IMG/VR virus record: IMGVR_UViG_3300037501_000255
Origin: a virus
Lineage: Duplodnaviria; Caudoviricetes
Direction: 5' to 3' (one strand)
Length of the DNA: 64,000 bases
In this document: in pieces, positions 27,085 through 32,900 of the stretch
Numbering within the stretch: position 1 is the stretch's first letter
Layout of the letters: each line of letters begins with the position of its first letter
Notes under the pieces: generated by a model
Told to the model about the DNA's origin: nothing
Databases searched by the model: none
The model's input: the letters and a program-made list of their open reading frames with translations, nothing else
Made by a program: the position numbers and the translations under genes

Positions 27085-27840
27085 TCAATTTACCCCATAT
27101 GCAGTTTTTGATACTTCACTAAGCTGCCTATTGAGGATGATATCATCCAACAATATTGGGCCCAATTCAGATACGGGAATTTGATTTTTATCCTCAAATG
27201 CACGACATGCTTCAATTTTAGCTAGAAGGTCTATGGCGTGCGGATGATTTGGGAATCCCTCATATTCTTTTTTTACGGCCCCCGCGTAAGCATCCCAGGA
27301 ACCAAAAATAAATTCTTTACGCTCACCCATATCCTGAGGATTAAAGCCTGTCAGATTTACATCTTCAAACATAGACAGGTCATACATGTCCTTATCAGCC
27401 CTTCGAATACGCTCTGTCAAATATAATTCTAGAGTGGCAAGACATTTAATTAGATATGTCATACCAAGAGTAATTCCTCGAATACTGAGGTTGTCGCCAA
27501 TATAATACGATATATTGAGGCGCACGCGCCCTTCGCTTGCTGGCCTAACACCCGAGCCGGAGCAGCGATACATGAATATCAAATTATCCATGTCAGATAA
27601 GGTTTTTAAACTAAGGATGTCGGCGGAGAACACTACGGTAGCTTCTATACTGTACCCCAACATATGGTGATCCATATTTAGAATTGCCACACGATCTTTG
27701 TCAAACGAGAAGATAATGCTCTTGTCTGCCACATCTGCCGAAATATTTGAATAGCCAAGTGCCTTAAGAAATTTCGTAGCTAGTAGAAATTCCCATTTAG
27801 TTATTAACTTAGAAAATGTGTCGCGTAAAAAGGATAACAA
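27085..27840 (-). CDS. hypothetical protein
   Basis: TTG start after a gggagg RBS; about 250 aa. Confidence 0.55.
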   Translation of the reverse strand: MLSFLRDTFSKLITKWEFLLATKFLKALGYSNISADVADKSIIFSFDKDRVAILNMDHHMLGYSIEATVVFSADILSLKTLSDMDNLIFMYRCSGSGVRPASEGRVRLNISYYIGDNLSIRGITLGMTYLIKCLATLELYLTERIRRADKDMYDLSMFEDVNLTGFNPQDMGERKEFIFGSWDAYAGAVKKEYEGFPNHPHAIDLLAKIEACRAFEDKNQIPVSELGPILLDDIILNRQLSEVSKTAYGVN

Positions 27841-27850
27841 TTGACCTCCC

Positions 27851-27892
27851 AAAAAATAAAGGTACAGGGGGAACATTTGGCCCCCTGTACCT
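27851..27892 (-). terminator. Rho-independent terminator after the SSB gene
   Basis: Perfect 12-bp stem AGGTACAGGGGG/CCCCCTGTACCT, 9-nt loop, followed on the minus strand by TTATTTTTT. Confidence 0.75.
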
Positions 27893-27906
27893 CGGGTATT
27901 AGCTAA

Positions 27907-28581
27907 TCATTGGAAGTCAAAGTCATCATCCTCCGCTATGTTAGCAGCAGCCTTCGAAGCATTCGAATTGCCAGAGCTTTTGAATGTAGCAGAAGAATCT
28001 ACTGCATTTCCTCCGGCTAGACCCAACTTACGCAGAATTTCCTCTACTTTTGAGGGCTGAGCAAATTTCTCTGCACTGACACGCGCGAGGAAATCCTTCA
28101 CCATAAGGCTTTCTTCTTGATTGATTGGGCCCATATTTCTTGGCACAGCAGTTACAATGTAGGTGTTGGAAATGCCGCGACCGCGGTCCTTATCAATCTT
28201 AACATCATACTGGCGTGGGTCACCCCAGTCCTTGTCCTTGCGCAGATTGACAATCTGATTGTAAACCTGCTTGCCGAACTCTACCAACTGAACGCGACCA
28301 CGTTCGCGGTTGATCGCAGCGATGAGGTACTTGGGCTGAGCTTTGTTGCCTTCGGCGCAAAGCGGGCAGTCATTCAGAGAGCAGTTTACCCTGCGTGTGC
28401 GACCTTGCACATCTGTTGCCCAGTGTATTGCGAAGATACAGGGGCCATCCTGCACAATGCGCAAGAGATACTTCCCGTCATCCTTCATATTAAGGAAGTC
28501 ATCCTTATCGAAGGCCGCTCCAGATGAGTCACCGCTCTCTGGAAGCCAAGAGTCTAATTTACCGAATGTTGGTTGTGCCAT
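27907..28581 (-). CDS. T4 gp32-like single-stranded DNA-binding protein
   Basis: LRIV..., H...NC...CPLC zinc ligands, GDP..YDVKIDK, acidic/aromatic tail EDDDFDFQ. Confidence 0.7.
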   Translation of the reverse strand: MAQPTFGKLDSWLPESGDSSGAAFDKDDFLNMKDDGKYLLRIVQDGPCIFAIHWATDVQGRTRRVNCSLNDCPLCAEGNKAQPKYLIAAINRERGRVQLVEFGKQVYNQIVNLRKDKDWGDPRQYDVKIDKDRGRGISNTYIVTAVPRNMGPINQEESLMVKDFLARVSAEKFAQPSKVEEILRKLGLAGGNAVDSSATFKSSGNSNASKAAANIAEDDDFDFQ

Positions 28582-28610
28582 GTTGTTTTCTCCTATTACA
28601 ATTTTGCTTA

Positions 28611-28700
28611 ATTGCGTTATTGTGTTATTGTGTTATTGTGTTATTGTGTTATTGTGTTATTGTGTTATTGTGTTATTGTGTTATTGTGTTATTGTGTTAT
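28611..28700. repeat. 8-nt tandem repeat (ATTGTGTT)x10 plus one variant ATTGCGTT
   Basis: Perfect copies at 28619-28698, variant at 28611-28618; lies in the leader of the SSB gene. Confidence 0.98.
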
Positions 28701-29240
28701 TTTCTTTCCCCACTCGTCTCTACGGACGGGTAGGACTTTTTCTGGCAAGTCGGTATCTTTCGATACGACATCTTTCATAAGATGATGAGCTTTGAGGAAT
28801 AATTGCTTCTTTTCCTCAATCATCGTCTTAAACATTTTGGCCTCAATACACTTGCCTTGAGCTTCCAAAAAGTCCGAATCTGAGAAGGCGTACTGCTCGC
28901 GATCTTTGGCAGACTTAAACCCGGCCTCAGCGGCGCGAACCATCATAGCCCGGCTAAAAGCCGCCTTCTTGGCAGCCTCGCATCTCAACTCGTAGCTTAC
29001 TGCTAGCGAATATAATTCGCCACACATGGCCATCCCTTTAAGCATCGCTCCTGCCAAATATTCGGCATAAGATGGATCCAAGTCGTGTATATTTTTAGGG
29101 ACTTCCCTGGAGATAGCAAATATGCTGGATATGAGCATATCTCCGCCATCCGGAAGAGTGTGCTCACGCCTAATCGCCATCTCAATTATTTCAGCTCTAG
29201 AATTGAGCCCTGAAACCTCAGTATTGTCGCTATCTGCCAT
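28689..29240 (-). CDS. helical protein, possible UvsY-like recombination mediator
   Basis: All-helical, KSAKDREQYAFSDSDFLEAQGK; immediately upstream of the SSB. The function is inference. Confidence 0.35.
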   Translation of the reverse strand: MADSDNTEVSGLNSRAEIIEMAIRREHTLPDGGDMLISSIFAISREVPKNIHDLDPSYAEYLAGAMLKGMAMCGELYSLAVSYELRCEAAKKAAFSRAMMVRAAEAGFKSAKDREQYAFSDSDFLEAQGKCIEAKMFKTMIEEKKQLFLKAHHLMKDVVSKDTDLPEKVLPVRRDEWGKKITQ

Positions 29241-29294
29241 GCCTTCTCCGTTACTGTGCATATGCTGCAAACGTCGTAGGTAGACGCTCAAATA

Positions 29295-29918
29295 TTAACC
29301 GTCAGATCTCCTAAATCTATTGAGATTTGGGCTATCTTTGAGCGCCGCTAACTTTGCCATTCTCTGTGCCGTTAGCGGGTCCGACGCTCCCCCGTCAAGG
29401 TCTACCAGCGAGGTGGGGTCAGGCGGCATTAAACCGGCCATGGCTGCGGCGAACTCCGAAGTCCCGGCGCCGGCCCCCTTGGCGGTCTTAGCGACCGTCA
29501 TATCGCCTTTGGAGAGGCCGAACTCGCGCTCGGCCTCCGCTCGGAGGGCGAAGATCTCTTGGCGTCGCTCCTCTTCTGGCAAGCTCTTAAGGTGAGGGTA
29601 CTCCTCCAACAGCTCGCGCTCAATCTCTTCATCCTGCATTTGGGATCGAGTTTTTGGTTTTACCCTGGCTGATGGCTGAATGGAGGATGCTAACCCCTGC
29701 CCTCTCGGTACAAGGTCATATTTGCCGGCGATTAGAGCAGCTACTTTAACGAGCGTAGCTTCATCAACATCTGCATCCGCCAGCTTTTCCTTGATTGAAG
29801 TAAATTCGGCATTAATTGCTGCGGACATGATCGTCTTGCCGCATGCAGGGCATGAGTTGTCCTGAAGTGCCTTGGTAAAGGACGGCGGTATCGGGGTTTG
29901 ACAGTTATTGCATTTCAT
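29295..29918 (-). CDS. zinc-ribbon hypothetical protein
   Basis: N-terminal CNNC...CPACG. Confidence 0.6.
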   Translation of the reverse strand: MKCNNCQTPIPPSFTKALQDNSCPACGKTIMSAAINAEFTSIKEKLADADVDEATLVKVAALIAGKYDLVPRGQGLASSIQPSARVKPKTRSQMQDEEIERELLEEYPHLKSLPEEERRQEIFALRAEAEREFGLSKGDMTVAKTAKGAGAGTSEFAAAMAGLMPPDPTSLVDLDGGASDPLTAQRMAKLAALKDSPNLNRFRRSDG

Positions 29919-32900
29919 TGTTCACCTGATTTTTATAGTAGGCTTCTAAGTTGATTAACACCAGAGTTTTATTGCCAGCATATTCATTGACTTTAAACAT
30001 GCCACGTATAGGCAGGCCCACGCGGAGTATTTTCTTCATTTTCTCATACTGGTCGGCCCATATTGTAACTTCTACACTTTCGCCGCGCAGATTTTCTATG
30101 GTTAATTTACCCATAGTTTTACCCTTATTCTTACCATCTTTTTTGATAAGAATCTCTTTAATAGATGTTACTATTCCTTCAGTTGGAAAGTTTATATTAT
30201 CTACCATAGCCTGCAGCTGAGCGTATGTCTGACCATATCTGCCCTCAATAAAGAATCCGGGATAGAGAGCCTTGATATCTCCAGAAACATATTCTCCCAG
30301 AGTATTCTTTTCTCCCTCCAGCTTTTCGCGCATAGTGAATTCAACGTGAGCTAATTCATGGCTATTTGGTACAAATGCGCTTAGCTGCTCGGGCGTGAGC
30401 TGATATGATTTCTTAATCTTCTTCTCTACCACAACTCTGGTGCGACTCGATTTACCCTCCAGATCTCCGCTATAATCATCAGATAGCTCCTCATTCTGGA
30501 AATCGCCATCATCAGCGATATCCACCTCAACCTCTTCCTCAACCTCTACGACAATCTCTTCTCCGTGCTTTTTAGCATACGCCTGCAGTTCTTTACGAAT
30601 ATCAAGGAAGTTGTCATGGATATATTTCCTTGACAATCCAAGGCTGTCGAATGCTCCAGCTAGGGCAAGGGCTACGATGACCGACTTGTTTACGACATTT
30701 CCTGGTGTACGATGTAGGAAGTCCTGAAATGAAGCATACGGCTGTCCGGCAATAATTGCCTTGAGCGCCCTCTCGCCCACGCCTTTTATCGCACCAAGGC
30801 CGGTAACAATTGTGCCCTTATCCTTCATAGAATAATATTCTTTGGATAAGTTAATGTCACATGACTGTATATTAATCTTAAATAGCTTGGCATCTTTTTT
30901 GAGAGCGTCGATAATCTCGCTGCGCTCACGCTTATTGCCCCTAGTTTGCGTATTTAGATTTGCGCATATAAATGGGCCAGGAGCATGCGCTTTGTAATAC
31001 GCCGTCTGATAGGAGATCATGCTATACATAATTGCGTGGCTAAGATTGAATCCATATCCGGCGAACGGCAGGACGACCTTATTCCATATTTCCTGAGCCT
31101 CGTCCTTTGATAGTTCAGAGAACGCCATGGAGTCTATTATGAATTTCTTCTCCAGTTCCGCAGCAAGATGAGCTCCTTTCTCCTTGAGCTTAGTAAGCTT
31201 ACGCAGACCGTCTGCTTCGGATAGATCCCATCCGGCTACCAACTGTGCAAGCTTGAGAAGATCCTCTTCATAAACCGGAATGCCGTGAGTGTGCTTAAAT
31301 ACCGGTTCCAAACATGGGTGGATATACTTTACTGGACTGCGTCCAAACCTACGATTTATGAATTCAATTCTATCTTGCTTACGGACAGATGGTCGTCCGA
31401 GAGCGCTGATGGCGGCAATGTCCTCAACTGACTTCGGCAGCATAGCCTTGCAGAGCGGCGTCATACTGCCATTTAACTGAAACATCCCGGTAGTATGCCC
31501 CAGATGCATTAGCTTGTAGGCCTTTGCATCGCCATCCTGCAAACTTTCAGGCTCTGGTAGGGTCATGCCGATTGACTTTGCTAGAGATATAGTCTCATCA
31601 ATAACATCCAGGGTATCTAACCCAAGAAAGTCCATCTTGACCAGACCAATCTCCTCGCACTGATCTTTATCATACTGAACAGAGATGGTTCCATCGCTAT
31701 CTCTGCGCAGCGGAGCGCACTCAGGCAGCGGCGTATCGGAAATCACTATGCCGGCAGCATGGGTAGCGAACCCGCGCGGAACGCCGATTAACTCATTAGC
31801 GTACTCTAGTATAACCGGGTACTCCTGCACGAACTTGCGTAACTTCTCCGATGCCTCCATAGCCTTAGCCATAGTGTCGATTTTAATTCGCTTGTCGCCC
31901 TCCATTATTAGGTCTGGAATACTGGCTGTAACGTCGTTTGCAATTTTGAAGGCAGTACTCTTATCTCCTCCAATAACCAATGACCGAGCCACGTCCTTGA
32001 TGACTAGCTTTGGTGTTAATCGGAGAATGTTAGAAATGAATGCAACCTTGTCTTCTCCATACTTGTCTTTGCAATATTGAATAACACGCTCTCTGCCGCT
32101 AGGAGCAAAGTCGCAATCGATATCTGGAAGTGACTTCTTCTCCTTATTCTGGAAACGCTCGAAAAGCAATCCATATTTAATAGGATCTGCCATATGAATA
32201 CCGAGCAGGAATGCTACAAGGGAGCCCCCCACGCTTCCGCGGCCGGGACCGACAGTAATCCCGTTATTTTTGGCCCATTGTATGTAATCGGCGACGATTA
32301 GCATATACGAGCTGAAGTTGCGCATCTCAAGAATATCAAGCTCTTTCTTTACGCGCTCCAGGTATTCCTGCTTCTTTTCTTTAGAAAAGGCTTCTGTGTA
32401 TTTGTCAAATGCCTTTTTAACACGGAAGCGTAGATAGGCGGCGTCTTTCTTGAGCGCAGCGATTGCAGGCTTATCTTGCGACCATGCGCTGAACTCAGCT
32501 GCATCCCCCTCGTCTTTCCAGGGATACGCCGGCAGTCTGTGACCCTTCGGAGCCATGTAGTCCGGATATTCACAACTATCGGCTATTTTCACAGTATTAT
32601 CCACCATTGTGCCCGCAGTGGTACTATCGAATTTTTTCGCAAAGTAGCTGACTAACTGATCTCGGCCCTTCAAGTAGAATTCCGGGCACGGCTTAATCGC
32701 CCCGTACTTGGTACCGCCGCATTGATAACATTCCTTCTTGGAATCCGCAGGATACTCCCCGGTTCCAGCGCAAATTAGGCATGGCTGATATGTAGCGTAA
32801 CGGTGACGCGTTGGGTCCTCAAGGGATTTCTTGGAACCGATTGCCAATACCATATCGTGATATTTCTCATGCTTACTCGTAAGATAGTGCGAGTCGCATG

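Follow-up and report, generated by a model that had tools for sequence, protein, structure and literature searches.

An apparently recent octanucleotide repeat expansion in the unstructured leader of a gp32-like SSB gene of a freshwater jumbo phage

The analyzed stretch of DNA (hereafter the window, 64,000 nt) is part of an IMG/VR record of 142 kb with a CheckV completeness of 38%. A tandem array of an 8-nt unit lies in it between a gene for a UvsY-like protein and a gene for a gp32-type SSB, followed by a short non-repeated leader that carries the ribosome-binding site of the latter (Table 1). All genes near the array are encoded on the minus strand. Since an identical copy of the SSB protein is also found on a contig of 367,953 nt from another assembly, the carrier is a jumbo phage from freshwater, uncultivated and with a genome of roughly 370 kb.

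Table 1. Features of the array locus, given in positions of the window.
Feature	Coordinates	Strand	Basis or remarks
Intrinsic terminator	27850..27892	-	Perfect 12-bp stem, 9-nt loop, T run; directly after SSB stop
SSB gene, gp32-type, 224 aa	27907..28581	-	PHROG, alignment, AF2/Foldseek
Proximal non-repeated leader	28582..28610	-	Weak hairpin and Shine-Dalgarno
Tandem array	28611..28701	-	Tandem Repeats Finder and sequence reading
UvsY-like gene, 183 aa	28689..29240	-	Fold match to T4 UvsY; last codons in array
RNA hairpin	28708..28735	-	3' end of UvsY-like gene; about -13 kcal/mol; 10 pairs, one mismatch

The designation of the SSB as gp32-like, as given in an earlier note on this DNA, was evaluated on sequence as well as on fold level. 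Comparison with the SSB families of PHROG resulted in matches of 8e-14 and 1e-9. The gp32 family of Pfam (PF08804) stayed below its gathering score for the SSB of the window (13.7 bits versus a cut-off of 26.8), and sub-threshold matches to it were found in 13 of 16 family members with a best E-value of 0.008; judged by its sequence, the family is a remote relative of gp32. A sequence-profile search of the PDB with the SSB gave no match, and the fold search alone succeeded: an AF2 model based on 16 homologues (pLDDT 70; 77-87 in the core) retrieved the core of gp32 from RB69 and T4 on Foldseek ranks 1-6 (probability 1.0, E 6e-5 to 1e-3, TM 0.44-0.54). The protein is composed of a conserved N-terminal peptide (FGKLDSW) without a LAST-type motif, a disordered linker, an OB core, and a disordered acidic tail ending in DDDFDFQ. 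According to the model, the label is correct, with a predicted gp32 fold and a gp32-like three-part layout. H53, C67, C72, and C75 are invariant across the 16 homologues down to 40% identity and probably form a metal-binding sub-domain (zinc, by the His plus three Cys).

The upstream gene was likewise assigned by fold. Pfam and PHROG searches of its product found no match, and an independent language-model search (Atlas) gave PF11056, UvsY, as a lead. Its AF2 model (pLDDT 84.5) placed T4 UvsY on the top 13 positions, and on 18 of the first 20, of a Foldseek search against the PDB (TM 0.68-0.78 on the target, probability 1.0, E 0.03-0.2), suggesting a UvsY-like recombination mediator. The disordered C-terminal tail of the UvsY-like protein has a conserved D-E-W-G-(K/R)-(K/R) motif. 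In combination with a RecA/UvsX-like gene located about 4 kb downstream, the UvsY-like and the gp32-like SSB genes would constitute a T4-style presynaptic module. The terminator after the SSB gene is kept in position in all relatives (L009-L034) and represents the most stable 40-nt window in nearly every locus, indicating that the SSB gene ends the transcription unit. A sigma-70 scan of the minus strand from the array to the ATG found no promoter, although such a scan has little power for a jumbo phage. Given this result and the terminator, the array most probably belongs to the UvsY-SSB message, as the earlier note had presumed.

Read on the minus strand, the array consists of ten units of AACACAAT (28698-28619) and one of AACGCAAT (28618-28611). 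Tandem Repeats Finder described it by a period of 8, 11.4 copies, 98% matches, and a score of 175, making it the best-scoring tandem repeat of the entire 142-kb record. The only other notable array of the record, ranking next, is a 21-nt repeat (G000:C1:28417-28479, outside the window; 2.5-3.2 copies, up to 100% matches), which is suggested to be coding because its period is a multiple of three. The 8-mer AACACAAT occurs ten times consecutively on the minus strand compared with 1.9 occurrences expected in the window, and elsewhere in the window only once; the resulting count of 11 was reached by none of 100 shuffles. The earlier note's description of an 8-nt repeat of 10-11 copies in the SSB leader was thereby confirmed in the form of ten perfect units and a degenerate one. 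Its attribute “G-free” applies to the ten perfect units, the single G of the array being found in the eleventh, promoter-distal unit. The array was also said to start at the upstream stop codon. It does overlap the gene end, but its first letters already fall within the final codons of the UvsY-like gene: the protein terminates with D-E-W-G-K-K-I-T-Q, I-T-Q and the stop are encoded by the first array units, and the TAA itself (28691-28689) falls within the second unit. Since 8 cannot be divided evenly by 3, TAA is present in all three frames, just as claimed, while the distance from the array end to the AGGAG motif, given as about 20 nt, amounts to 16 nt.

An independent check of the array was based on Logan contigs (k=31 assembly) of a freshwater run, possibly the source sample. 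These contigs end inside the array from both sides, 27-30 nt into the pure repeat. In addition, a cyclic contig of 38 nt was present, made up of the eight 31-mers that a pure period-8 repeat generates and of nothing else. Its depth of 70.6x compares with 12.5 and 11.9 for the flanks (about 12.2x) and thus gives a ratio of 5.8. For the ten perfect units as assembled, a pure periodic stretch of 86 nt, a ratio of 7 is predicted; the observed value corresponds to about 9 perfect units, calculated from contig depths. In view of the contig breaks and the depth ratio, the array is real and comprises about 9-10 units, near its assembled length. The difference between 5.8 and 7 could reflect coexisting alleles of differing length, which would fit a tunable element.

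A DNA search of a phage collection found no match, and a literature search on simple-sequence repeats of phages gave nothing relevant. Short arrays of three to five AACACAAT units are present in five unrelated IMG/VR contigs (L117-L121), including a giant-virus MAG. Their surroundings are intergenic, AT-rich, and not close to SSB genes; in two cases an ATG lies no farther than about 20 nt away. Kinship of these arrays to the one in the SSB leader was considered and rejected.

To place the array in its evolutionary context, SSB homologues were collected by protein search from 90% down to 40% identity, and the DNA of twelve distinct lineages was compared. The gene order DnaE, an ORF of about 205 aa, UvsY-like, SSB, terminator, ORF251, RuvC, DnaJ, and RecA is kept in all twelve. 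The spacer between the stop codon of the UvsY-like gene and the ATG of the SSB gene measures 30-67 nt in these relatives versus 107 nt in the window, and the array is absent from every one of the twelve syntenic loci (SSB 40-90% identical). At the array site, the three closest relatives with compared DNA (L012, L116, and L014, with 90%, 89%, and 83% SSB identity, respectively) contain exactly one AACGCAAT unit each, in the context ..AAAATAACGCAATA(A/G).., which encodes the same K-I-T-Q-stop; this single unit is flanked by AATAA microhomology 8 nt apart. In the window, the ancestral G-containing unit is retained at the 3' end of the array with ten G-to-A copies 5' of it. Each copy re-creates ATA-ACA-CAA-TAA (I-T-Q-stop) and consequently leaves the UvsY-like protein unchanged.

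This comparison shows that the spacer originally had one AACGCAAT unit between AATAA microhomologies and that slippage then raised the number of units to 11, the new ones being placed 5' of the ancestral unit. The spacer was thereby lengthened from about 30-35 nt to 107 nt, and the added RNA is G-free and unpaired. Since relatives with 83-90% SSB identity have a single unit, the array is, as far as sequence comparison can tell, a recent slipped-strand expansion of a single lineage and not a conserved operator. It shares several properties with known slippage-derived simple-sequence repeats (VNTR, bacterial contingency loci), namely perfect head-to-tail short units, relatives holding a single-copy progenitor with flanking microhomology, and a site, bounded by a stop codon and the following ribosome-binding site, that tolerates changes in length. 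In contrast to those, the copy number here alters neither a reading frame nor promoter spacing. An exact tandem duplication of 12-13 nt (TAAAACTTACAC x2), G-free as well, was observed in the UvsY-SSB spacer of a further relative (L009:2961-2985; SSB 81% identical). This second, independent event indicates that the spacer tolerates duplications.

The Shine-Dalgarno sequence AGGAG (28594-28590) of the SSB gene is separated by 8 nt from the ATG (28581-28579), and a weak hairpin (28599-28623, -3.4 kcal/mol) is predicted just ahead of it. Within the array RNA, neither the MFE nor the centroid structure contains a paired base, in agreement with the earlier statement that it cannot fold stably. In both structures an unpaired, RBS-adjacent tract of about 110 nt extends from the hairpin at the end of the UvsY-like gene to the Shine-Dalgarno sequence, compared with more than 40 nt for a T4-type tract. 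Regarding the nucleating structure that had been envisaged upstream, a hairpin is indeed found just 5' of the leader (Table 1), but its 3' arm is translated sequence and represents the conserved D-E-W-G codons, so that protein constraint partly explains it. Comparable hairpins are present in 8 of 13 lineages (local stability within the top 1-10%) with shifts in register and are unremarkable in the other five, and RNAalifold on 11 relatives found neither consensus pairs nor covariation for it. A conserved nucleating hairpin was consequently not established. Pseudoknots are not predicted by the folding tools used; by inspection, the G-free array offers no partner for the hairpin loop. A search of positions 27500-30000 against Rfam revealed no credible family.

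A very distant branch shows a layout of hairpin plus unfolded tract, too. In a marine group of gp32-like SSBs (L041-L053, L079-L087, L109; N-terminus MGFLDNI..), a small conserved hairpin of the GTCCCA..TGGGAC type precedes the SSB ATG by about 90 nt and is followed by an almost G-free, A/C-rich leader of about 60 nt without a Shine-Dalgarno sequence.

The composition of the leader extends beyond the lineage that carries the array. Leaders of the relatives are rich in A and C and poor in G (A 0.48-0.66, G 0.06-0.20), and the SSB leader of the window ranks first of 65 leaders of its own genome record in terms of A/C richness. For a test on family level, 80 further metagenomic loci of gp32-like SSBs (mostly 26-41% identity) were added, yielding 31 sequence-distinct leader groups. 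In these, the region from -40 to +12 of the SSB start was set against the median value for the remaining gene starts of its locus. Weaker folding of the SSB start was seen in 29 of the 31 groups (mean MFE -2.2 versus -6.2 kcal/mol; sign test p=5e-7), a reduced G content in 28 of 30 groups, and an increased A+C content in 28 of 29 groups; these numbers are to be read with the crude ORF caller for the comparison starts and the not fully independent phylogeny of the leader groups in mind. T4 served as positive control, with gene 32 having the lowest G and the third weakest fold among 21 gene starts in a 20-kb stretch. The comparison thus shows that the start region of gp32-like SSB genes is kept poor in G, rich in A and C, and free of structure. 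What is conserved as a functional element is the leader in its unfolded state and not the repeat.

The array occurs in none of the relatives examined. Short, low-score A/C-rich arrays were detected by Tandem Repeats Finder ahead of many distant SSB genes, and repetitiveness as a trait of the family was evaluated against 200 dinucleotide-preserving shuffles. With only 3 of 31 groups above chance (Fisher p=0.50), it was discarded as an effect of composition.

In T4 and RB69, the gene 32 operator combines a 5' pseudoknot of about 28 nt with a tract of lower structure, longer than 40 nt, which carries UUAAA/UAAA repeats and includes the RBS, both parts being essential; RB49 has no pseudoknot (PMC535899). 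The T4 leader tract, too, is a micro-array, with a period of 5 nt and about three TTAAA units. The locus in the window shares with the gene 32 operator of T4, T2, and RB69 the position immediately upstream of a gp32-fold SSB gene, the order of a 5' folded element and a long unpaired, G-poor, A-rich tract leading into the Shine-Dalgarno sequence, and the overlap of the 5' element with the end of the upstream ORF (segG in T4, the UvsY-like gene here). In contrast, its unit is AACACAAU, with a length of 8 nt, 11 copies, and an A/C-rich composition, so that only a UAA core is common with UUAAA/UAAA. Furthermore, the 5' element is predicted as a simple hairpin and is not conserved, where T4 has a pseudoknot, and the T4 operator is conserved among close T-even phages whereas the array is missing from all relatives. 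By analogy, the layout would be T4-like, while unit identity and conservation speak against assigning the array to the T4-type operators.

In light of these results, we consider it probable that the array is a young, lineage-specific expansion which is tolerated as the leader stays G-free and unstructured, and whose own effect is neutral or modulatory. The expansion would be tolerated through preserving the G-poor, structure-free property of the leader. It would at the same time provide a longer single-stranded platform which might serve as a ribosome standby site and might be coated by the presumably cooperative SSB, and it would move the upstream stop about 70 nt farther away from the SSB start, weakening any termination-reinitiation coupling. 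The array is at most a modifier of SSB translation; a T4-like self-repression and a role in ribosome standby are both possible by analogy. Octanucleotide arrays of ten perfect units are uncommon in phage genomes. As this one is in addition the only such array in 142 kb, selection for length is conceivable.

The earlier note had proposed an autogenous operator of the gp32 type. Free SSB would nucleate near the upstream hairpin and cooperatively coat the array up to the Shine-Dalgarno sequence, thereby blocking initiation once ssDNA is saturated, with the copy number setting the threshold of free SSB. We regard this as unlikely, although several observations are in its favor: the predicted gp32 fold with its conserved N-terminal peptide, linker, and acidic tail, the unfolded leaders throughout the family, a layout of hairpin, about 110 unpaired nt, and SD-AUG which resembles the T4 operator, and the example of RB49, showing that some T4-like phages can do without the pseudoknot (PMC535899). 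Against it stand the absence of the array from all relatives, the hairpin with its non-conserved register, lacking covariation, and location within translated sequence, and a unit that differs from UUAAA/UAAA. Moreover, any highly translated gene is equally expected to have an unfolded leader. Of the proposal, the part concerning an unfolded, G-poor leader, as found for T4 gene 32, thus holds family-wide, while the part concerning the array does not. For a protein that binds irrespective of sequence, the closeness of the 8-nt period to a site size of 7 nt is numerology. The unfolded tract could also act independently of the SSB protein as a selected translational enhancer, the G-free A/C-rich stretch being a standby platform for the ribosome (S1) that raises the output of a protein required in stoichiometric amounts. 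Single-stranded standby sites upstream of the SD raise translation initiation (PMC3936740), and the locus shares with such A/C-rich enhancer leaders a long tract of unpaired RNA that immediately precedes a strong Shine-Dalgarno sequence, with the difference that the tract is natural and repeat-built here. The tract being unpaired, the leader being the most A/C-rich of the genome record, and the weak folding at SSB starts across the family are in line with this explanation. Leaders of 30-35 nt, however, suffice for the relatives, and purifying selection could not yet be visible in so young an array, which is why we judge a selected enhancer to be improbable.

Two further explanations have very little probability in our view. 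A DNA-level element, i.e., origin iterons or sites for a phage or host DNA-binding protein, was named as the alternative in the earlier note and would suit a repetitive intergenic region within a replication/recombination module. The cumulative GC skew, however, falls monotonically through the site without a turn, an adjacent AT-rich unwinding element and flanking inverted repeats are lacking, a period of 8 bp does not keep phase with the DNA helix, the AACACAAT word recurs just a single time in the window, and conservation in the syntenic relatives is missing. That the copy number or the whole array was made by the assembler is just as hard to believe. Short-read metagenome assemblies can miscount tandem repeats, and the Logan contigs break within the array; nevertheless, both flanking contigs reach well into pure repeat, the depth of the cyclic contig requires about 9 units, the array (91 nt) is shorter than a usual read, and the SSB protein was recovered on the large contig of another assembly, too.

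Returning to the young, tolerated expansion, the array itself represents ordinary repeat biology, and its annotation as an operator or origin is unwarranted. The unfolded, G-poor SSB start found across 31 divergent leader groups and T4 is the more solid and general result, and it fits T4-style self-titration or plain high-efficiency translation alike. If the array matters, it provides a natural experiment on the length of an unstructured leader versus the translation of a presumably cooperative ssDNA-binding protein, for which the single-unit relatives are ready-made controls. A far-reaching version, to which we give a slim chance, regards the array as a lattice which titrates the SSB of the phage itself and which can evolve and be tuned through its copy number, i.e., a contingency-type repeat in the leader of a replication gene. 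Slippage would then add or remove sites of about one monomer each and shift the free-SSB concentration at which translation is shut off, enabling a jumbo-phage population to retune its SSB supply rapidly to different hosts or replication loads.

Mobile elements were encountered in the same gene neighborhood of several relatives. An intein (Hint/LAGLIDADG) is inserted inside DnaE (1533-1655 aa) of several of them (L022, L027, and the contig carrying P0005), and the DnaE of the window, with 1208 aa, is free of it. In one relative, an HNH/NUMOD1 homing-endonuclease gene directly follows the SSB gene (L030:3225-4367), the same relative position as that of mobile endonuclease genes around T4 gene 32.
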